This document shows, piece by piece, positions 6,999-59,801 of a DNA stretch of 64,000 nucleotides. This DNA comes from Escherichia coli. Lineage in GTDB: Bacteria > Pseudomonadota > Gammaproteobacteria > Enterobacterales > Enterobacteriaceae. The position numbers and the translations under genes were made by a program. Below the pieces are notes generated by a model. It saw only the letters and a list, made by a program, of their open reading frames with translations, made no database searches and was not told the origin of the DNA. The stretch lies in the NCBI RefSeq assembly GCF_024700885.2, contig NZ_CP117016.1; one strand, written 5' to 3'. Each line of letters starts with the position of its first letter. Position 1 is the first letter of the stretch.

Positions 6999-8567
6999 AT
7001 GTTAGATATAGTCGAACTGTCGCGCTTACAGTTTGCCTTGACCGCGATGTACCACTTCCTTTTTGTGCCACTGACGCTCGGTATGGCGTTCCTGCTGGCC
7101 ATTATGGAAACGGTCTACGTCCTTTCCGGCAAACAGATTTATAAAGATATGACCAAGTTCTGGGGCAAGTTGTTTGGTATCAACTTCGCTCTGGGTGTGG
7201 CTACCGGTCTGACCATGGAGTTCCAGTTCGGGACTAACTGGTCTTACTATTCCCACTATGTAGGGGATATCTTCGGTGCGCCGCTGGCAATCGAAGGTCT
7301 AATGGCCTTCTTCCTCGAATCCACCTTTGTAGGTCTGTTCTTCTTCGGTTGGGATCGTCTGGGTAAAGTTCAGCATATGTGTGTCACCTGGCTGGTGGCG
7401 CTCGGTTCAAACCTGTCCGCACTGTGGATTCTGGTTGCGAACGGCTGGATGCAAAACCCAATCGCGTCCGATTTCAACTTTGAAACTATGCGTATGGAGA
7501 TGGTGAGCTTCTCCGAGCTGGTGCTTAACCCGGTTGCTCAGGTGAAATTCGTTCACACTGTAGCGTCTGGTTATGTGACTGGCGCGATGTTCATCCTCGG
7601 TATCAGCGCATGGTATATGCTGAAAGGTCGTGACTTCGCCTTCGCTAAACGCTCCTTTGCTATCGCTGCCAGCTTCGGTATGGCTGCCGTTCTGTCTGTT
7701 ATTGTTCTGGGTGATGAATCTGGTTACGAAATGGGCGACGTGCAGAAAACCAAACTGGCTGCTATTGAAGCCGAGTGGGAAACGCAACCTGCGCCTGCTG
7801 CCTTTACTCTGTTCGGCATTCCTGATCAGGAAGAGGAGACGAACAAATTTGCGATCCAGATCCCTTACGCGCTGGGCATCATTGCAACGCGTTCCGTGGA
7901 TACTCCAGTTATCGGCCTGAAAGAACTGATGGTGCAGCATGAAGAACGCATTCGTAACGGGATGAAGGCGTACTCTCTGCTCGAGCAACTGCGTTCTGGT
8001 TCTACCGACCAGGCGGTTCGTGACCAGTTCAATAGCATGAAGAAAGACCTCGGTTACGGTCTGCTGCTGAAACGCTATACGCCAAACGTGGCTGATGCGA
8101 CTGAAGCGCAGATTCAACAGGCAACCAAAGACTCCATTCCGCGTGTAGCGCCGCTGTACTTCGCGTTCCGTATCATGGTGGCGTGTGGCTTCCTGCTGCT
8201 GGCAATCATCGCGCTCTCTTTCTGGAGTGTCATCCGCAACCGCATTGGCGAGAAAAAATGGCTGCTGCGCGCCGCGCTGTACGGTATTCCGCTGCCGTGG
8301 ATTGCTGTAGAAGCGGGCTGGTTTGTGGCTGAATATGGCCGCCAACCGTGGGCTATCGGTGAAGTGCTGCCGACAGCTGTGGCGAACTCGTCACTGACCG
8401 CAGGTGATCTCATCTTCTCAATGGTGCTGATTTGCGGCCTGTATACCCTGTTCCTGGTGGCAGAATTGTTCTTAATGTTTAAATTTGCACGCCTCGGCCC
8501 AAGCAGCCTGAAAACCGGTCGCTATCACTTTGAGCAGTCTTCCACGACTACTCAGCCGGCACGCTAA
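6999..8567 (+). CDS. cydA: cytochrome bd-I ubiquinol oxidase subunit I
   Basis: 522-aa protein [23 protein letters not shown], recognised. Confidence 0.95.
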
Positions 8568-8582
8568 GACAGGAGTCGTCAA

Positions 8583-9722
8583 ATGATCGATTATGAAGTA
8601 TTGCGTTTTATCTGGTGGCTGCTGGTTGGCGTTCTGCTGATTGGTTTTGCAGTCACTGACGGTTTCGACATGGGGGTGGGCATGCTCACCCGTTTCCTCG
8701 GTCGTAACGACACCGAGCGTCGAATTATGATTAACTCCATTGCACCACACTGGGACGGTAACCAGGTTTGGCTGATCACCGCAGGCGGCGCACTCTTTGC
8801 TGCCTGGCCGATGGTCTATGCCGCTGCGTTCTCCGGCTTCTATGTGGCGATGATCCTCGTGCTGGCGTCTTTGTTCTTCCGTCCGGTCGGTTTTGACTAC
8901 CGCTCCAAGATTGAAGAAACCCGCTGGCGTAACATGTGGGACTGGGGCATCTTCATTGGTAGCTTCGTTCCGCCGCTGGTGATTGGTGTAGCGTTCGGTA
9001 ACCTGTTGCAGGGCGTACCGTTCAACGTTGATGAATATCTGCGTCTGTACTACACCGGTAACTTCTTCCAGCTGCTTAACCCGTTCGGCCTGCTGGCAGG
9101 CGTGGTGAGCGTAGGGATGATCATTACTCAGGGCGCAACCTATCTGCAAATGCGTACCGTGGGCGAACTGCACCTGCGTACCCGTGCAACGGCTCAGGTG
9201 GCGGCACTGGTGACACTGGTCTGTTTCGCACTGGCTGGCGTATGGGTGATGTACGGTATCGATGGTTATGTTGTGAAATCAACAATGGATCATTACGCGG
9301 CATCTAACCCACTGAATAAAGAAGTGGTTCGTGAAGCTGGCGCATGGCTGGTTAACTTCAACAACACGCCGATTCTGTGGGCTATTCCGGCACTGGGTGT
9401 GGTTCTGCCGCTGCTGACCATCCTGACTGCACGTATGGATAAAGCCGCGTGGGCGTTTGTGTTCTCCTCCCTGACGCTGGCCTGCATCATCCTGACAGCC
9501 GGTATCGCAATGTTCCCGTTTGTGATGCCGTCCAGCACCATGATGAACGCAAGTCTGACAATGTGGGATGCAACTTCCAGCCAGCTGACACTTAACGTCA
9601 TGACCTGGGTTGCGGTGGTTCTGGTACCGATCATTCTGCTCTACACTGCCTGGTGTTACTGGAAAATGTTCGGTCGTATCACCAAAGAAGATATTGAACG
9701 TAACACCCACTCTCTGTACTAA
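8583..9722 (+). CDS. cydB: cytochrome bd-I ubiquinol oxidase subunit II
   Basis: 379-aa membrane protein, recognised. Confidence 0.95.
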   Translation: MIDYEVLRFIWWLLVGVLLIGFAVTDGFDMGVGMLTRFLGRNDTERRIMINSIAPHWDGNQVWLITAGGALFAAWPMVYAAAFSGFYVAMILVLASLFFRPVGFDYRSKIEETRWRNMWDWGIFIGSFVPPLVIGVAFGNLLQGVPFNVDEYLRLYYTGNFFQLLNPFGLLAGVVSVGMIITQGATYLQMRTVGELHLRTRATAQVAALVTLVCFALAGVWVMYGIDGYVVKSTMDHYAASNPLNKEVVREAGAWLVNFNNTPILWAIPALGVVLPLLTILTARMDKAAWAFVFSSLTLACIILTAGIAMFPFVMPSSTMMNASLTMWDATSSQLTLNVMTWVAVVLVPIILLYTAWCYWKMFGRITKEDIERNTHSLY

Positions 9723-14583: not shown

Positions 14584-15129
<546 letters not shown>

Positions 15130-15138
15130 GAGAATTGC

Positions 15139-15930
15139 ATGAGCAGTAACTTCAGACATCAACTATTGAGTCTGTCGTTACTGGTTGGTATAGCGGCCCC
15201 CTGGGCCGCTTTTGCTCAGGCACCAATCAGTAGTGTCGGCTCAGGCTCGGTCGAAGACCGCGTCACTCAACTTGAGCGTATTTCAAATGCTCACAGCCAG
15301 CTTTTAACCCAACTCCAGCAACAACTCTCTGATAATCAATCCGATATTGATTCCCTGCGCGGTCAGATTCAGGAAAATCAGTATCAACTGAATCAGGTCG
15401 TGGAGCGGCAAAAGCAGATCCTGTTGCAGATCGACAGCCTCAGCAGCGGTGGTGCAGCGGCGCAATCAACCAGCGGTGATCAAAGCGGTGCGGCGACATC
15501 AACGACGCCGACAGCTGATGCTGGTACTGCGAATGCTGGCGCGCCGGTGAAAAGCGGCGATGCAAACACGGATTACAATGCAGCAATTGCGCTGGTGCAG
15601 GATAAATCCCGCCAGGATGACGCAATGGTGGCATTTCAGAATTTCATCAAAAATTACCCTGATTCAACTTACCTGCCAAACGCCAATTATTGGCTGGGTC
15701 AGTTAAACTACAACAAGGGTAAAAAAGATGATGCGGCGTATTATTTTGCTTCGGTAGTGAAAAACTATCCGAAGTCACCGAAGGCTGCAGATGCGATGTT
15801 TAAAGTCGGCGTCATCATGCAGGACAAAGGTGACACCGCAAAAGCGAAAGCCGTATACCAGCAGGTTATCAGTAAATACCCTGGTACTGATGGCGCTAAA
15901 CAGGCGCAAAAACGTCTGAACGCGATGTAA
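15139..15930 (+). CDS. cpoB: cell division coordinator CpoB (YbgF), TPR protein
   Basis: 263-aa protein, recognised. Confidence 0.9.
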   Translation: MSSNFRHQLLSLSLLVGIAAPWAAFAQAPISSVGSGSVEDRVTQLERISNAHSQLLTQLQQQLSDNQSDIDSLRGQIQENQYQLNQVVERQKQILLQIDSLSSGGAAAQSTSGDQSGAATSTTPTADAGTANAGAPVKSGDANTDYNAAIALVQDKSRQDDAMVAFQNFIKNYPDSTYLPNANYWLGQLNYNKGKKDDAAYYFASVVKNYPKSPKAADAMFKVGVIMQDKGDTAKAKAVYQQVISKYPGTDGAKQAQKRLNAM

Positions 15931-16094: not shown

Positions 16095-16170
16095 GGGTCG
16101 TTAGCTCAGTTGGTAGAGCAGTTGACTTTTAATCAATTGGTCGCAGGTTCGAATCCTGCACGACCCACCA
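16095..16170 (+). tRNA. lysT: tRNA-Lys (anticodon UUU)
   Basis: 76-nt cloverleaf GGGTCGTTAGCTCAGTTGGTAGAGC...ACGACCCACCA with CTTTTAA anticodon loop. Confidence 0.95.
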
Positions 16171-16198
16171 ATCGCTAAGGTGGACGCGGTAGTAAAAC

Positions 16199-16270
16199 GT
16201 GAAGGATAACGTTGCGTCAGCAACGGCCCGAAGGGCGAGACGAAGTCGAGTCATCCTGCACGACCCACCA
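16199..16270 (+). repeat. spacer repeat ending in a copy of the tRNA-Lys 3' terminus
   Basis: About 70 bp GTGAAGGATAACGTTGCGTCAGCAACGGCCCG...TCATCCTGCACGACCCACCA; second copy at 16694-16763. Confidence 0.7.
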
Positions 16271-16305
16271 CTAACCTAGTTAGTTGTAGTATCCAGCGTA
16301 GTATC

Positions 16306-16381
16306 GGGTGATTAGCTCAGCTGGGAGAGCACCTCCCTTACAAGGAGGGGGTCGGCGGTTCGATCCCGTCATCACCCACCA
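16306..16381 (+). tRNA. valT: tRNA-Val (anticodon UAC)
   Basis: 76-nt cloverleaf GGGTGATTAGCTCAGCTGGGAGAGC...CATCACCCACCA. Confidence 0.95.
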
Positions 16382-16383
16382 CC

Positions 16384-16459
16384 GGGTCGTTAGCTCAGTT
16401 GGTAGAGCAGTTGACTTTTAATCAATTGGTCGCAGGTTCGAATCCTGCACGACCCACCA
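16384..16459 (+). tRNA. lysW: tRNA-Lys (anticodon UUU)
   Basis: Identical to lysT. Confidence 0.95.
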
Positions 16460-16510
16460 CTAATTACGGTGGGTTCGGTGGAAGTAGTTTGTAGTATCCA
16501 GCGCAGTATC

Positions 16511-16586
16511 GGGTGATTAGCTCAGCTGGGAGAGCACCTCCCTTACAAGGAGGGGGTCGGCGGTTCGATCCCGTCATCACCCACCA
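16511..16586 (+). tRNA. valZ: tRNA-Val (anticodon UAC)
   Basis: Identical to valT. Confidence 0.95.
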
Positions 16587-16589
16587 CTC

Positions 16590-16665
16590 GGGTCGTTAGC
16601 TCAGTTGGTAGAGCAGTTGACTTTTAATCAATTGGTCGCAGGTTCGAATCCTGCACGACCCACCA
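16590..16665 (+). tRNA. lysY: tRNA-Lys (anticodon UUU)
   Basis: Identical to lysT. Confidence 0.95.
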
Positions 16666-16693
16666 ATTTTAACATCAAACTCAGATGTTAAGC

Positions 16694-16763
16694 GTGAAGG
16701 ATAACGTTGCGTCAGCAACGGCCCGTAGGGCGAGCGAAGCGAGTCATCCTGCACGACCCACCA
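16694..16763 (+). repeat. spacer repeat ending in a copy of the tRNA-Lys 3' terminus (second copy)
   Basis: Near-identical to 16199-16270. Confidence 0.7.
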
Positions 16764-16811
16764 ATTTTAAAGATTGGTTCCGAGTAGAAATCTTTCAGGT
16801 AACACCCGTAT

Positions 16812-16887
16812 GGGTCGTTAGCTCAGTTGGTAGAGCAGTTGACTTTTAATCAATTGGTCGCAGGTTCGAATCCTGCACGACCCACCA
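16812..16887 (+). tRNA. lysZ: tRNA-Lys (anticodon UUU)
   Basis: Identical to lysT. Confidence 0.95.
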
Positions 16888-16920
16888 TCCTGAATGATTA
16901 AAGCAGCATAATCCCGCAAG

Positions 16921-16996
16921 GGGTCGTTAGCTCAGTTGGTAGAGCAGTTGACTTTTAATCAATTGGTCGCAGGTTCGAATCCTGCACGACCCACCA
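16921..16996 (+). tRNA. lysQ: tRNA-Lys (anticodon UUU)
   Basis: Identical to lysT. Confidence 0.95.
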
Positions 16997-42360: not shown

Positions 42361-42375
42361 GCTTTTTTATACTAA
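42361..42375. other. attL: prophage attL core (lambda att core GCTTTTTTATACTAA) followed by P' arm
   Basis: Exact lambda core next to ybhC, followed by lambda P' arm sequence GTTGGCATTATAAAAAAGCATTGCTTATCAATTTGTTGCAACGAACAGGTCACTATCAGTCAAAATAAAATCATTATTTG. Confidence 0.9.
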
Positions 42376-44349: not shown

Positions 44350-45006
44350 TCACCCCTGGGGCGGTTCTGGTAGCGGCATCCAGTGGGTTACCTCCATGCG
44401 GCACCCATCATCCGACGTAAACCACGAACGATCGTCCGCACTGAACCAGCCAATCCGGATATAACCCCACACATCGAAGAAAAGTACGTCGTGATTATTA
44501 TCCGGCATTCGATCACTACAGCTTATCCAACCATCAGGAGTTACCGGAGAGTTGCCACCGGGAATATTTTCCGGAATATTTTGTTGTGCGTTTTGTGGTT
44601 GTTCGGATTTACCCTGAAGCATGGCGGCGCGGCAGGCGTTCCAGCCAGCTGTTCGCCCAAGCGCGTAAACTTCAGATGGCTCAAGATAATCAATGTCATG
44701 CCCATCCTCATCGTCGTTCTCAGGTAATGCAGCAGGTACTACCGGTACTGGCGGAGCGGCGTAGACTTCAATAATCCCATTATCAATAGGCCATTCCCCA
44801 TCCTTGATGTAGTCACTTGTGCCGTCAACTTGCTGTTCTGCAATGTGGAATGCGCCAATAGGCTCTGCTTCCAGCGATGCCAGTGCAATACGCAGGGCAG
44901 CCAGGATATTCCCCTGGTAATCATCAAGCCCGAAAGGAAGCTCATCACGAATGCTTTCATAATCGTTGATAGCCTGCTGCAGCCATTCTCTTGTGATAGT
45001 GCTCAT
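44350..45006 (-). CDS. DUF551-like phage protein
   Basis: 218 aa; C-terminal WFSADDRSWFTSDDGCRMEVTHWMPLPEPP resembles the DUF551 family common in lambdoid early regions. Confidence 0.5.
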   Translation of the reverse strand: MSTITREWLQQAINDYESIRDELPFGLDDYQGNILAALRIALASLEAEPIGAFHIAEQQVDGTSDYIKDGEWPIDNGIIEVYAAPPVPVVPAALPENDDEDGHDIDYLEPSEVYALGRTAGWNACRAAMLQGKSEQPQNAQQNIPENIPGGNSPVTPDGWISCSDRMPDNNHDVLFFDVWGYIRIGWFSADDRSWFTSDDGCRMEVTHWMPLPEPPQG

Positions 45007-45671
45007 GATGCCTCTCCTTTACATGCTTCGGTGACGTTTATTCCAGCGTTGTGCAGTGCCTCAAGAACCTGATGCTGCCTGTAAACCATTTCAGTGTGGT
45101 AAGGCTCGTCAAAATCGACGCGATGCAACATGCTATAGCATTGCGGAAGCACAACCTCCCGCAACTCCAGCTCAGCAATGCGCTTCTCTGCGGCTTCCAG
45201 CTTCTCGCGCATATCGTCAACGTACTCGACCAGAGATCCGCCAGCAGGAATTTCGCACTCCTCGACCAGTTGGAAGTAGATATCAGCTGCGGCCCGTGTG
45301 TTGCTATGCCTAGCGTCGCCCATCTCACCTTCACGAAGAGCACCGCGTTCGGCGGTAAGATTGGCTATTTTGCTGTCTTTGCCTTCAAGCTCAACGCGCA
45401 GCTTCCCTACCGTTAGCGCAATATCCTCGTTCTCCTGGTCACGGCGTTTGATGTATTGCTGGTTTCTTTCCCGTTCATCCAGTAGTGCCAGCACGGTTTC
45501 TGGTCCGGCCAGAAATTTGAAGGCGTTGAGCGCATCAATATCCACACCGTAATCTTTAAGTTCCTGTTCACTTAACAAATCATCATCAGCTGGCAACATT
45601 AACAGGCGTTCCATTGCTGGAATTGCACGTTTCGCCGCCTCACGCAGTGCCTGATAGTCAATCTTGCTCAC
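45003..45671 (-). CDS. coiled-coil phage protein, paralog A
   Basis: 222 aa; shares N-terminal IDYQALREAA motif with next gene; start overlaps upstream stop. Confidence 0.5.
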   Translation of the reverse strand: MSKIDYQALREAAKRAIPAMERLLMLPADDDLLSEQELKDYGVDIDALNAFKFLAGPETVLALLDERERNQQYIKRRDQENEDIALTVGKLRVELEGKDSKIANLTAERGALREGEMGDARHSNTRAAADIYFQLVEECEIPAGGSLVEYVDDMREKLEAAEKRIAELELREVVLPQCYSMLHRVDFDEPYHTEMVYRQHQVLEALHNAGINVTEACKGEAS

Positions 45672-46264
45672 TGGTTGCCTCCTTTTCGAAGCTGGGCGGC
45701 GATATCTTCGAGAACGCCATCAGAGAATGAGCGGTCAAAATCGCCTTCCGGCGCATTAGCCATAAACTCAGTAGAGGTAAGAATCATCCGGGCAATATCC
45801 GCGGCGTTCTTCGCAGTATCATCAATAAAACCAGCTTCCCAGGCAGCCAGCATTCTGTTCGCCACAAAATAAGCGCCTTCCTTGCGTGCTTCAGTCTTCA
45901 CTTCAGCTAGAAAAGCATCGGTAGCTGGAGTTTCGCTGTGGTGCAGGGCATCGTTGATAATCATTGCAGCAACTCCGGCCTGCCCTGCATCCGTGACCGA
46001 CACATGCTCAAGAGTTACGGCCATTGCGTGTTTCAGCCCGGCGTTCTCTGCCACCAGCGCCGCGAGATTAGTCTCAAGCTCTGCAATACGGCACATAGCA
46101 TCAATATTTGTGTCTTCCAGCCGCTTAATTTCATCCAGTAGAGCCAGTGCCACCGATGGCGTGAACGCCATACGAAACGCCACAAAATTTTGATGCATAG
46201 GTTCTGTTTCTACTGCAACTGCCGCATCTCGCAGTGCCTGATAGTCAATTGTCATTCTCGCCAT
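45668..46264 (-). CDS. coiled-coil phage protein, paralog B
   Basis: 198 aa; N-terminal [14 protein letters not shown]. Confidence 0.5.
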   Translation of the reverse strand: MARMTIDYQALRDAAVAVETEPMHQNFVAFRMAFTPSVALALLDEIKRLEDTNIDAMCRIAELETNLAALVAENAGLKHAMAVTLEHVSVTDAGQAGVAAMIINDALHHSETPATDAFLAEVKTEARKEGAYFVANRMLAAWEAGFIDDTAKNAADIARMILTSTEFMANAPEGDFDRSFSDGVLEDIAAQLRKGGNQ

Positions 46265-56381: not shown

Positions 56382-56559
56382 CCCATCCCAATCCCTTCAA
56401 TACCAGAAAGAAAGCGTCGAGCGGGCTTTAACGTGCGCTAACTGCGGTCAGAAGCTGCATGTGCTGGAAGTTCACGTGTGTGAGCGTTGTATATATGAAT
56501 GCTTAAATATGGTGGAACATAATGAGAAATATAAGCAACATAGACGAATTAAGAAATAA
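56374..56559 (+). pseudogene. ninF: ninF disrupted by insertion; chimeric 61-aa ORF keeps the CxxC...CxxC motif
   Basis: [37 protein letters not shown] then divergence at 56486; in-frame NinF-like C-terminus resumes at 57028-57089. Confidence 0.6.
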
Positions 56560-57027
56560 ATTATCATATGATGATGTTTTAGGTGTGCTTAGATGGAAAG
56601 TGTCTCCTTCTAATAATGTTAAGGTTGGCAGTGTTGCTGGTTACATTAGGAGTGATGGTTATAGGATGTTAACTATCGATGGTGTAATTACTTATGCTCA
56701 CCACGTTATATGGATGATAAATAATGGTGAGATTCCATTAGGGTATAAAATTGATCATATAAATGGAGTAAGGTCAGATAATAGGCTATCTAATCTTCGA
56801 TTGGTTACACACCAACAGAATGCACAGAACCAAAAGAGAAAAATAACCAATTCGTCAGGAGTGACTGGAGTATATTTCAATAAAGAGAGATGTAAGTGGA
56901 TTGCGAATATATGCGTAGATGGGCGCACCAAATATCTTGGAATATTTGCAAGCATCATTGACGCTATTGCAGAAAGGAAGAGGGCAGAAAAAGAACTGGG
57001 TTTTCATGAAAACCATGGCAGACCATA
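56486..57027 (+). mobile_element. 542-bp AT-rich insertion carrying an HNH homing endonuclease gene, inside ninF
   Basis: Deleting 56486-57027 restores a contiguous ninF frame (...VHVCEHCAELMSDPNSSMYEEEDDE); abrupt GC drop. Confidence 0.6.
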
Positions 57028-57028
57028 A
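56522..57028 (+). CDS. HNH homing endonuclease with AP2-like DNA-binding domain
   Basis: 168 aa; YKIDHINGVRSDNRLSNLRLVTHQQNAQN (HNH) followed by SGVTGVYFNKERCKWIANI (AP2-like). Confidence 0.75.
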   Translation: MRNISNIDELRNKLSYDDVLGVLRWKVSPSNNVKVGSVAGYIRSDGYRMLTIDGVITYAHHVIWMINNGEIPLGYKIDHINGVRSDNRLSNLRLVTHQQNAQNQKRKITNSSGVTGVYFNKERCKWIANICVDGRTKYLGIFASIIDAIAERKRAEKELGFHENHGRP

Positions 57029-57029
57029 C

Positions 57030-57089
57030 TGCGCAGAACTGATGAGCGATCCGAATAGCTCAATGTACGAGGAAGAAGACGATGAGTGA
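57030..57089 (+). pseudogene. ninF: ninF 3' remnant
   Basis: In-frame CAELMSDPNSSMYEEEDDE-stop immediately after the insertion. Confidence 0.5.
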
Positions 57090-58000: not shown

Positions 58001-58185
58001 ACGCCACAATTCAAACGATACCAGAGCTTCTTATTCAGACACGAGGCAATCAGACCGAAGTGGCGAGGATGCTTTCCTGCGCAAGAGGAACAGTGCTCAA
58101 GTACAACCGAGACAGCAAAGGCGAGCGTCACGTAATAGTTAACGGCGTCCTGATGGTCAAACAGGGCAAGAGGGGTAGACCATGA
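57997..58185 (+). CDS. small putative DNA-binding protein (62 aa)
   Basis: Helix-turn-helix-like segment TRGNQTEVARMLSCARGTVLKY; overlapping start/stop with rusA and Q. Confidence 0.45.
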   Translation: MNATIQTIPELLIQTRGNQTEVARMLSCARGTVLKYNRDSKGERHVIVNGVLMVKQGKRGRP

Positions 58186-58805
58186 GACTCGAAAGTGTAG
58201 CTAAATTTCATTCGCCAAAAAGCCCGATGATGAGCGACTCACCACGGGCCACGGCTTCTGACTCTCTTTCCGGTACTGATGTGATGGCTGCTATGGGGAT
58301 GGCGCAATCACAAGCCGGATTCGGAATGGCTGCATTCTGCGGTAAGCATGAACTCAGCCAGAACGACAAACAAAAGGCTATCAACTATCTGATGCAATTT
58401 GCACACAAGGTATCGGGGAAATACCGTGGCGTGGCAAAACTCGAAGGAAATACTAAGGCAAAGGTACTGCAAGTGCTCGCAACATTCGCTTATGCGGATT
58501 ATTGCCGTAGTGCCGCGACGCCGGGCGCAAGATGCAGAGATTGCCACGGTACAGGCCGTGCGGTTGATATAGCAAAAACAGAGCAGTGGGGGAGAGTTGT
58601 CGAGAAAGAGTGCGGAAGATGCAAAGGCGTCGGCTATTCAAGGATGCCAGCAAGCGCAGCATATCGCGCTGTGACGATGCTAATCCCAAACCTTACCCAA
58701 CCCACCTGGTCACGCACCGTTAAGCCGCTGTATGACGCTCTGGTGGTGCAATGCCACAAAGAAGAGTCAATCGCAGATAACATTTTGAATGCGGTCACAC
58801 GTTAG
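58182..58805 (+). CDS. Q: late-gene antiterminator Q (lambda type)
   Basis: 207 aa with zinc-finger CRDCHGTGR...CGRCKGVGY; recognised as lambda Q. Confidence 0.85.
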   Translation: MRLESVAKFHSPKSPMMSDSPRATASDSLSGTDVMAAMGMAQSQAGFGMAAFCGKHELSQNDKQKAINYLMQFAHKVSGKYRGVAKLEGNTKAKVLQVLATFAYADYCRSAATPGARCRDCHGTGRAVDIAKTEQWGRVVEKECGRCKGVGYSRMPASAAYRAVTMLIPNLTQPTWSRTVKPLYDALVVQCHKEESIADNILNAVTR

Positions 58806-59017
58806 CGGCATGATTGCCACGGATGGCAACATCTTTACGGCATGATATTGACTTTTTGAATAAAGTTGGGTAAATTTGACCCAACGATGGGTTAATTCGC
58901 TCGTTGTGGTAGTGAGATGAAAAGAGGCGGCGCTTACTACCGATTCCGCCTAGTTGGTCACTTCGACGTATCGTCTGGAACTCCAACCATCGCAGGCTGA
59001 GAGGTCTGTAAAATGCA

Positions 59018-59076
59018 ATCCCGAAACAGTTCGCAGGTAATAGTTAGATCCTGCATAACGGTTTCGGGATTTTTTA
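59018..59076 (+). terminator. tR'-like terminator downstream of Q
   Basis: Long hairpin ATCCCGAAAC...GTTTCGGGAT followed by TTTTTTATTT. Confidence 0.7.
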
Positions 59077-59079
59077 TTT

Positions 59080-59154
59080 GGGTCAGTCGTATAAAGGTCA
59101 TTACGGAAGGCTGTTAACCTTCTTATCGTGGTTCGAGTCCACGCTGTCCCGCCA
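59080..59154 (+). tRNA. phage-encoded tRNA, anticodon GUU (Asn-type), slightly non-canonical
   Basis: Manual fold: acceptor GGGTCAG/CTGTCCC (one mismatch), D-loop with GG, anticodon arm GAAGG-CTGTTAA-CCTTC, T-arm CGTGG-TTCGAGT-CCACG, discriminator G, CCA. Confidence 0.55.
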
Positions 59155-59159
59155 AATAT

Positions 59160-59235
59160 GCTGGTTTAGCTCCAATGGTAGAGCAGTCGCCTTGTAAACG
59201 AATGGGTAGCGGTTCAAGTCCGTTAACCAGCACCA
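59160..59235 (+). tRNA. phage-encoded tRNA, anticodon UGU (Thr-type), weak anticodon stem
   Basis: Manual fold: acceptor GCTGGTT/AACCAGC perfect, D-arm GCTC-CAATGGTA-GAGC, T-loop TTCAAGT, CCA; anticodon stem has two mismatches. Confidence 0.5.
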
Positions 59236-59477
59236 TAACTGAGCCGTAGCCACTGACTATCCTGAATTCATCAGTGATAGTTACGCTGCGGCCTTCTACA
59301 CATGATATTCGTGAAAGCGGGTGGCAGGAGGTTGCGCTAACAACCTCATGCCGTTTTGCCCGTGCATATCGGTCACGAACAAATCTGATTACTAAACACA
59401 GTAGCCTGGATTTGTTCTATCAGTAATCGACCTTATTCCTAATTAAATAGAGCAAATCCCCTTATTGGGGGTAAGAC

Positions 59478-59801
59478 ATGAAGATGCCAGAAAAACATGA
59501 CCTGTTAGCCGCCATTCTCGCGGCAAAGGAACAAGGCATCGGGGCAATCCTTGCGTTTGCAATGGCGTACCTTCGCGGCAGATATAATGGCGGTGCGTTT
59601 ACAAAAACAGTAATCGACGCAACGATGTGCGCCATTATCGCCTGGTTCATTCGTGACCTTCTCGACTTCGCCGGACTAAGTAGCAACCTCGCTTATATAA
59701 CGAGCGTGTTCATCGGCTATATCGGTACTGACTCGATTGGTTCGCTTATCAAACGCTTCGCTGCTAAAAAAGCCGGAGTAGAAGATGGTGGAAATCAATA
59801 A
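59478..59801 (+). CDS. S: holin S (lambda S107/S105 dual start)
   Basis: [41 protein letters not shown], recognised as lambda S. Confidence 0.95.

Follow-up and report, generated by a model that had tools for sequence, protein, structure and literature searches.

Background

The cassette of adjacent tRNA-Asn and tRNA-Thr genes analyzed here, within a 64-kb stretch of Escherichia coli DNA (hereafter, the window), is already known: it has been described since the sequences of phages 21 and Sf6 became available and is annotated in the source genome. The copies in Sf6, SfI, BTP1, SPN9CC, Kapi1 and mEp506 agree with it in gene order, in the 5-nt spacer and in their placement after Q and ahead of the lysis genes (for example, PMC3636060, PMC2629481). 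The published genome descriptions of the cassette suggest codon supplementation only (PMC3636060, PMC8022706, PMC2629481). In the SfI genome paper, an ACA share of 17.3% in the phage is set against 7.1% in the host, with no argument offered for Asn (PMC3636060). The paper on phage L takes up the late-operon tRNA genes and suggests AAC codons in the coat gene as a reason for their presence (PMC8022706), and related prophages with these tRNA genes are mentioned in the paper on epsilon34 (PMC2629481).

Papers from 2025 and 2026 put tRNA-Thr(UGU) at the centre of P2-lambda interference, and the cassette tRNA-Thr is one base away from a tRNA with demonstrated resistance. The Old protein of P2, the effector of this classic interference, kills chiefly via cleavage of the host tRNA-Thr(UGU) and aborts lambda-type infection by excising the anticodon arm of this single host tRNA, and phage tRNA-Thr(UGU) genes rescue the Old-hit cells (Govande et al. 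2025; PMC12445682). Resistance to Old requires both an altered CNG motif (positions 28-30 and 40-42) and a shortened anticodon stem; the tRNA-Thr of phage 21, which carries the C28U/G42A changes and has a shorter stem, protects cells and escapes cleavage at site 1 almost completely (PMC12445682). Experiments with a related phage tRNA-Thr showed that the UGU anticodon is required for rescue. With the tRNA-Thr(UGU) of HK446, the OLD-sensitive phages HK97, HK542 and Bas34 form plaques again, whereas E. coli thrU gives no such effect (bioRxiv 10.64898/2026.07.10.737580). According to the same preprint, the viral tRNA-Thr(UGU) alone brings no relief from OLD defence against lambda or from OLD toxicity in recB cells, and HK446 also encodes a protein inhibitor, Oad2; its authors doubt that the tRNA is a defence adaptation and propose that it compensates for a tRNA gene disrupted by integration (10.64898/2026.07.10.737580). 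All these rescue experiments employed plasmid-expressed tRNA (PMC12445682; 10.64898/2026.07.10.737580).

[quoted passage not shown] 2025; PMC12409363). A U39A change in tRNA-Lys abolishes AriB cleavage, and escape from the B185 PARIS requires tRNA-Lys(UUU) (PMC12409363). Phage T5 encodes PARIS-neutralizing Lys(UUU), Thr(UGU) and Asn(GUU) tRNAs, so that two of its three anticodons match those of the cassette (PMC11464382, PMC12409363). Asn(GUU) is a secondary target of AriB and, among the comparison tRNAs, one that is cut more slowly by OLD.

The unrelated coliphages P7 and N4, whose tRNA genes are few, also have Asn(GUU) and Thr(UGU) genes close together. In the P1/P7 pair, which belongs to the C1-controlled ban operon, Asn(GUU) is located upstream of Thr(UGU), the two being adjacent in P7, and the order is the same in the tRNA cluster of N4, with a tRNA-Ser(UGA) gene in between. 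The P7 and N4 Thr genes are 76-82% identical to that in the window, with G39 and a fully paired 27:43 position; their Asn genes belong to another lineage (56-59% identity), and both the context and the timing differ from those of the cassette. Stx phages, such as 933W, carry ileZ-argN-argO between Q and stx, in a Q-dependent late leader, as is the case with the window cassette; unlike the cassette tRNAs, these are Ile and Arg tRNAs for rare codons, the classical view being codon supplementation for toxin and late genes.

Genomic context of the cassette

Over 22 kb, the window shows no difference from E. coli MLI114 (NZ_CP117013.1), and both tRNA genes are already present in the PGAP annotation of that record. 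They belong to a prophage of about 40.7 kb that resembles P22 and Sf6, has a coat protein of the P22 family, a portal and a tailspike, and is integrated at att-lambda between ybhC and ybhB/bioA (att core GCTTTTTTATACTAA at position 42361). The int and Q genes, pR', the 6S-type leader, tR' and the S-R-Rz genes of this prophage are of the lambda type. The cassette is located inside the late operon, about 17 kb away from int and the att site.

All features of the late region are on the plus strand. The lambda-type late antiterminator Q is an open reading frame of 207 aa (58182-58805; 'antitermination protein', WP_001235461.1, in the PGAP annotation) and is followed by a pR'-like late promoter (58848-58876), which aligns to lambda pR' and consists of TTGACT and TAAATT separated by a 17-nt spacer; no other sigma-70-like sites were found on either strand between 58400 and 59800. 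The late leader, the equivalent of lambda 6S RNA (58884-59079), is near-identical to lambda positions 44588-44782; at its end, the tR' hairpin (59017-59071) is followed by a U-run. This hairpin is lambda tR' with two substitutions. Its computed folding energy is -26.4 kcal/mol (z = -4.5), a stability attained by none of 200 shuffled sequences. When positions 58800-59500 were searched for other Rfam families at a relaxed threshold, nothing emerged beyond an miRNA match, to the terminator hairpin, at the level expected by chance.

Pairwise alignment with lambda reveals an exchanged module: the 159-bp tRNA cassette (59079-59237) takes the position of an unrelated lambda segment of about 163 bp, with near-identical flanks on both sides; the borders of the exchange in the alignment are '...TTTTTTAT' (also given as '...GGGATTTTTTAT') and 'AACTGAGCCGTAGCC'. 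Downstream lies S (59478-59801), the first protein-coding gene of the late operon, which encodes a holin (an open reading frame annotated by PGAP as 'phage holin, lambda family'). The cassette is thus placed directly behind the Q-dependent terminator and ahead of the lysis genes. An earlier note on this DNA, made from the sequence alone, had placed two cloverleaves in the late leader, after Q and before S, just past a tR'-like hairpin and with lambda-like flanks, and had taken them for a tRNA cassette carried in the leader; the open reading frames, the predicted fold and the lambda alignment bear out this entire arrangement. ARAGORN finds no tRNA genes in lambda and the aligned lambda segment looks unrelated, so the possibility that this segment is a decayed tRNA pair was rejected.

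tRNA gene calls and conservation

ARAGORN predicts nine tRNA genes in the whole window, seven of which comprise the host lysT-valT cluster (16095-16996). The remaining two are tRNA-Asn(GUU) (59080-59154, plus strand) and tRNA-Thr(UGU) (59160-59235, plus strand), with the 5-nt spacer AATAT (59155-59159) in between; these are the coordinates and the anticodons (read by ARAGORN as GTT and TGT) that had been proposed from folding by hand. A covariance-model call, set beforehand as one test of this proposal, was obtained for both genes: the RF00005 scores are 55.3 bits for Asn and 55.9 bits for Thr, compared with the curated gathering score of 29, and the E-values over the whole 64-kb window are 3e-9 and 2e-9, respectively. 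The host tRNAs outscore the cassette pair, with 66-79 bits for those in the window, 73.8 for thrU and 72.6 for asnT.

Both cassette genes encode the CCA end and contain the T-loops TTCGAGT (Asn) and TTCAAGT (Thr) given in the earlier note. In the Asn gene, for which a slightly unusual D-region had been noticed, the covariance alignment marks U13:U22 in the D stem and U4:U69 in the acceptor stem as non-standard pairs; the two mismatches reported for the anticodon stem of the Thr gene (GUCGC/ACGAA) are G27:A43 and C31:A39. AsnRS recognizes G34-U35-U36 together with G73, and ThrRS recognizes G1:C72, C2:G71, G35 and U36. By these rules, all identity positions are present in the cassette genes (G73 in Asn; G1:C72 and C2:G71, along with A73, in Thr) and are conserved in the variant alignments. 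The cloverleaves are therefore confirmed as genuine tRNA genes, and all the descriptive claims of the earlier note hold, in an agreement that is far beyond chance.

The imperfect stems had also raised the alternatives of decayed pseudo-tRNAs and of tRNA-like regulatory RNAs. We addressed these at the level of the family, with a compensatory-change test that bears on the stems other than the D stems, the Asn D arm having been fixed by the search pattern. Among 36 Asn variants, 92.3% of the cells in the alignment are paired and both-sided changes occur in 15 of the 21 pairs; none of 500 shuffles reaches the observed value, and slid controls attain at most 52%. The 20 Thr variants, which include those of N4 and P7, have 95.2% of cells paired and both-sided changes in 8 of 21 pairs, again matched by none of 500 shuffles. 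The anticodon loops are invariant across both alignments, with GUU, UGU, U33, A37 and the discriminator bases all conserved. Because of these compensatory changes and invariant anticodon loops, we consider the family to be under selection as tRNA rather than decayed. A pseudo-tRNA would be recognized by a loss of model score, by damage to the acceptor stem or the anticodon loop and by a lack of constraint in relatives. These signs do not characterize the cassette family, and at this level the pseudo-tRNA alternative is unsupported. The regulatory alternative fares no better for the family, given that a Thr allele differing by one base acts as a tRNA in the published rescue experiments.

With the exception of C31:A39, the odd pairs are, judging from the alignments, features of lineages and not random damage. 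U4:U69 is a trait of the main lineage of the Asn genes, U13:U22 is present in 36 of 36 Asn variants, although the search pattern fixed that arm, and G27:A43 is found in 18 of the 20 Thr variants.

Distribution and variants of the cassette

Copies with 97-99% identity over 156-201 bp are present in Sf6, phage 21, SfI, BTP1, SPN9CC, HK446, mEp506, Kapi1 and many Salmonella phages, where the genes are usually annotated as tRNA-Asn and tRNA-Thr. Near-identity, the order of Asn and then Thr, and the 5-nt spacer all mark the window copy as a member of this known group; the same spacing is found in phage 21, JLK-2012 and phage L, and the Asn gene is identical in these three phages and the window. Among complete E. 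coli genomes, 368 of 5426 (~7%) contain the cassette.

A broader sample comprised 120 IMG/VR loci that were collected with a sequence pattern for the Asn D arm. In 78 of these, the genes form the Asn-Thr pair, in some cases with an additional tRNA gene after it; elsewhere, the Asn gene stands by itself or precedes other tRNA genes, for example those for Ile, Phe, Arg(UCU), Met, His or Tyr. The upstream terminator is of the phage 21 type in 57 of the 120 loci and of the lambda tR' type in 6; in the window, the cassette follows Q, pR' and tR' of the lambda type, whereas the phage-21-type terminator is the commoner partner. In the window, phage 21 and phage L, the terminator U-run immediately precedes tRNA-Asn despite three different Q types. 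The invariable start of tRNA-Asn directly behind a terminator U-run, with differing terminators and Q types, indicates that the module moves between Q systems.

The second gene does decay in some lineages. In phage L, it scores 42.1 bits and is not called by ARAGORN, and in JLK-2012 the 'Thr' gene is a chimera, in which the 5' part of the cassette gene (~25 nt) is joined to a 3' part close to host thrU, with a score of 49.0 bits.

A rare allele of tRNA-Thr

The Thr genes of phage 21 (sequence taken from the GenBank record) and HK446 differ from the window gene at a single position, 59198 on the plus strand, with 75 of 76 bases identical. At this position, which corresponds to position 39 of the tRNA, phage 21 and HK446 have G, and the window has A, which adds the C31:A39 mismatch. 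Among the IMG/VR Thr variants, which number 19 and represent 83 gene copies, A39 is absent. A 40-nt probe centred on the site located it in just 2 of the 5426 E. coli genomes, those of MLI114 (Mali) and JNE21-009 (Japan). These two unrelated strains have the same Q-tRNA-lysis segment around the allele, and the presence of A39 in both, on an intact segment, implies that it is not a sequencing error and has been transmitted. A39 hence appears to be a real, transmitted, rare variant, although its fitness is uncertain. C31:A39 was rejected as a family trait tied to nuclease escape: all other copies have G39, and A is found in 2 of the 5426 genomes only.

The substitution lowers the RF00005 score from 61.5 to 55.9 bits. 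In a folding model that treats the RNA as unmodified and takes no account of tertiary contacts, it destabilizes the cloverleaf by 3.7 kcal/mol and reduces the pair probabilities of the anticodon stem from approximately 0.8 to 0.01, and the isolated A39 anticodon arm fails to fold. With the predicted loss of most of the anticodon-stem stability, the window Thr copy may work poorly, so that partial loss of function in this allele may have occurred. As to decoding, the 31:39 pair is lost and the stem of the unmodified RNA is predicted to collapse, yet the allele persists in two strains. G39A may accordingly represent either a weaker tRNA-Thr or a further hardening against cleavage. The T5 tRNA-Lys change that does away with AriB cleavage likewise has an A at position 39.

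Relation to tRNA-targeting nucleases

The anticodon of the cassette tRNA-Thr, UGU, is that of the host tRNA preferred by the nuclease, and its sequence follows the rule for Old resistance: the CNG positions are UCG/CGA, compared with CUG/CAG in host thrU, and G27:A43 is located at the top of the stem. The Thr genes of phage 21 ('tRNA-Thr21'; PMC12445682) and HK446 represent the same gene in the same place behind the terminator and share U28:A42, the altered CNG motif and G27:A43 with the window. The Asn gene conforms to the Old rule in part: it has AAG/CUU where host asnT has CGG/CCG (CNG on both strands), but its 5-bp stem is intact, and C28:G42 is kept in 6 of the 36 Asn variants.

The AriB site UAAUC is lost in both genes, the corresponding sequences being UAAACG in Thr (UAAGCG in the family) and UAACCU in Asn. 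In this respect, the cassette tRNAs resemble the T5 variants, with changes at the AriB site, a replaced U39 and, in our numbering, a different D-loop around position 16. Unlike the T5 genes, to which they are only ~57-60% identical, the cassette genes are not accompanied by tRNA-Lys and belong to a temperate phage, in which they would be expressed late, whereas T5 is a virulent phage with a tRNA region. The lack of tRNA-Lys(UUU) sets the cassette apart from what escape from the B185 PARIS requires. Colicin E5 recognizes the anticodon loop, and because the cassette Asn shares its loop, CUGUUAA, with the host tRNA, it would not evade this toxin.

Proposed function of the cassette

We favor as the best explanation, and consider it probable, that this is a mobile late tRNA cassette that supplies nuclease-resistant replacement tRNAs timed with the late genes and also aids ACA decoding. 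Because pR' is the only promoter-like site between 58400 and 59800, the source of the tRNAs would be pR' transcripts that pass tR', after Q acts or through terminator leakage. Q-antiterminated transcripts would traverse the cassette and continue to the lysis and virion genes, and host RNase P and 3' processing enzymes would release the tRNAs, the supply of which would rise as late protein synthesis starts. The phage tRNA-Thr, with its altered CNG motifs (UCG/CGA) and a stem shortened by G27:A43 as the likely resistance features, would withstand P2 Old and restore ACA decoding, as extrapolated from the phage 21/HK446 allele. The tRNA-Asn, which lacks the AriB UAAUC site and has AAG/CUU, could play the same part against Old- and PARIS-type nucleases, and the extra tRNA-Thr(UGU) would also serve the ACA-rich late operon. 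On our analysis, the supply of nuclease-resistant tRNAs appears to be the best-supported function, given the activity from plasmids of the G39 Thr allele, from which we infer it for the native context, the Asn gene and A39. The occurrence of Asn(GUU) close to Thr(UGU) in P7 and N4 also speaks for a counter-defence role. It weighs against this explanation that Q-dependent expression may come too late if the nuclease fires early, as do the failure of viral tRNA-Thr(UGU) alone to relieve OLD defence against lambda, the presence of Oad2 in HK446, the missing tRNA-Lys(UUU), the unshortened Asn anticodon stem, the decay of the second gene in some lineages and the predicted instability of the A39 stem.

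Codon supplementation only, whereby the cassette tops up the scarce product of single-copy thrU, the sole reader of ACA, for an ACA-rich late operon and has no defence role, is a reading that we regard as rather unlikely, even though the codon counts point in its direction: the ACA share of Thr codons is 27.9% (16.9 per 1000) in the late operon compared with 12.3% (6.7 per 1000) in 32 host ORFs in the window, a 2.3-fold enrichment, and the share reaches 43.5% in the tailspike gene. The corresponding share is 29.9% in the virion genes of Sf6, which has the cassette, and 13.9% in the lambda late genes, but the P22 virion genes, which are similar and come without a tRNA at this position, have 21.4%, and this is a comparison of two phages against two; codon usage was therefore discarded as a test between the hypotheses. 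The Asn codons are unbiased (46.6 vs 42.3 per 1000, with an AAT/AAC ratio near that of the host), and the host has several Asn tRNA genes. Furthermore, codon supply, as advocated for ACA in the SfI paper (PMC3636060) and, similarly, for AAC in the phage L paper (PMC8022706), leaves unexplained both the altered anticodon stems and the rescue by phage alleles but not by host thrU. Codon supply nevertheless appears to make a real contribution that is compatible with the supply of resistant tRNAs and does not exclude it. On a more far-reaching reading, the cassette could be a counter-defence module with two targets, in which Asn, too, is a replacement resistant to Toprim tRNases, the site behind the terminator is a delivery device and G39A is a further step of escape. 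The reason to entertain this for Asn is that host Asn(GUU) is a substrate of PARIS AriB as well as of P2 Old; we see this extended reading as possible but tentative.

The remaining explanations deny the cassette a role as a source of functional tRNAs or tie it to another process. Scores some 17 bits below those of host thrU and asnT, the drop to 55.9 bits, the 3.7 kcal/mol and the unfolded isolated arm of an allele found in 2 of 5426 genomes, and the second-gene decay seen in phage L and the JLK-2012 chimera are what one would expect if the imperfect stems belonged to pseudo-tRNAs on the way out or, at least, if the window Thr were a broken allele. We hold this to be improbable in view of the covariation and invariant anticodon loops in the family, which amount to continuing selection, the conservation of U13:U22 and G27:A43, the experimental activity of the G39 allele and the otherwise intact Q-tRNA-lysis segment on which A39 resides in two unrelated strains. 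A tRNA-like element that provides RNase P and 3'-processing sites, detaching the leader from the late mRNA or tuning its stability, would fit the position of the cassette in the late leader and the unrelated segment of near-equal length at the same place in lambda; moreover, because the cassette has no promoter of its own, processing presumably must cut the late transcript. However, the anticodons, U33, A37, the discriminators and the ThrRS and AsnRS identity pairs, as commonly given, are all conserved, so a purely regulatory or processing role is unlikely, and with the UGU anticodon needed for rescue by the related phage tRNA-Thr and with lambda, P22 and many other relatives managing without the element, we assign it a very low probability. 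Least credible of all is a link to integration, either as part of an attachment site or, along the lines of the compensation proposed for HK446, as a substitute for a disrupted host tRNA gene: tRNA genes are the integration sites of many lambdoid phages (PMC2629481), but this prophage occupies att-lambda (core at 42361), where no tRNA gene is disrupted, and the cassette is ~17 kb from int and att, so this role was rejected.

Being common, with a presence in ~7% of the complete E. coli genomes, and mobile among Q types, the cassette is probably a widespread factor in the growth of temperate phages on hosts with Old or PARIS. Little is new here beyond the private G39A allele, the Asn gene as a candidate partner in resistance, and the decayed and chimeric variants that occur in nature, all of which now lend themselves to experiments.

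Altered tRNA-Thr and tRNA-Thr-like genes in related phages

The annotated tRNA-Thr of phage JLK-2012 (positions 1281-1356 of locus L007) is a chimeric gene in which the 5' part, about 25 nt, is that of the cassette Thr gene and the 3' part is very similar to host thrU; only 3 pairs are left in its anticodon stem, and it scores 49.0 bits with the Rfam tRNA model and is not called by ARAGORN. The next gene in JLK-2012 encodes tRNA-Gly(UCC), and the targets of the P2 Old tRNase (OLD) reported in a 2026 preprint include tRNA-Gly(UCC) (bioRxiv 10.64898/2026.07.10.737580). In phage L (ST64T type), the second gene (positions 1281-1352 of locus L008), annotated as tRNA-Leu(TAA), can be aligned to the Thr gene, with 4 nt and the UGU anticodon missing; it scores 42.1 bits and likewise lacks an ARAGORN call. 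The annotated tRNA-Leu(TAA) of phage L is probably a Thr gene that has decayed or has been repurposed.

The lambdoid tRNA-Thr lineage is also distinguished by position 14 (59173 in the window), which is occupied by C and, rarely, by G or U; A14 is nearly universal in tRNAs and is retained in the Thr genes of phages N4 and P7. The D-loop has been proposed as a contact for the second subunit of AriB, the tRNase of PARIS (PMC12409363).

Asn-Thr pairs and the Asn D-arm family

Phage P7 encodes tRNA-Asn(GUU) followed directly by tRNA-Thr(UGU) (positions 1425-1578 of locus L011), in the C1-controlled region of the ban operon and upstream of terB/tciA and tciB; tciA and tciB are also found behind the cassette of JLK-2012. 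The tRNA genes of N4 are those for Asn, Ser, Thr and Pro (positions 1337-1586 of locus L010). The Thr genes of P7 and N4 are 76-82% identical to that in the window, whereas their Asn genes belong to a lineage other than that of the window gene.

The D arm of the Asn gene is unusual (UCGUAUAAAGGUNAUUACGG, including a U13:U22 apposition) and is common to a broad family of tRNA-Asn genes in phages, represented by 120 IMG/VR loci (L012-L131), which were retrieved by this D-arm pattern, so that the D arm itself is fixed by the search; the acceptor, anticodon and T stems differ considerably within the family. Its members include contigs of 199-357 kb, and variable tRNA arrays among these loci begin with the Asn gene.

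Other features of the host region and the prophage

The host region of the window contains the cpoB/ybgF RNA thermometer (15030-15168; 142 bits) and the lysT-valT cluster (16095-16996), where five genes encode tRNA-Lys(UUU) and two encode tRNA-Val(UAC), and where two RtT elements are also present. The main target of PARIS, tRNA-Lys(UUU), is present in this host cluster and has no replacement in the cassette.

Within the prophage, several ead/Ea22-like and DUF551 genes lie on the minus strand of the early-left region (44350-46264); the 2026 preprint describes the OLD inhibitor Oad2 as a relative of P22 EaE that in some cases forms a fusion with EaD/Ea22 proteins (bioRxiv 10.64898/2026.07.10.737580). 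Past the window end, the immI (arc/antirepressor) region encompasses genes for a PIN-domain protein and an adjacent 239-aa hypothetical protein (positions 8309-9567 of locus L132, the continuation of the prophage, corresponding to window coordinates of about 76.8-78.1 kb), which may constitute a toxin or defence pair.

In the nin region of MLI114, a plus-strand ORF for a 168-aa HNH endonuclease (56522-57028) adjoins a truncated ninF pseudogene (about 56982-57089). In JNE21-009, where the segment otherwise matches that of MLI114, ninF is intact and the HNH gene is absent; the arrangement in MLI114 looks like a homing-endonuclease insertion.
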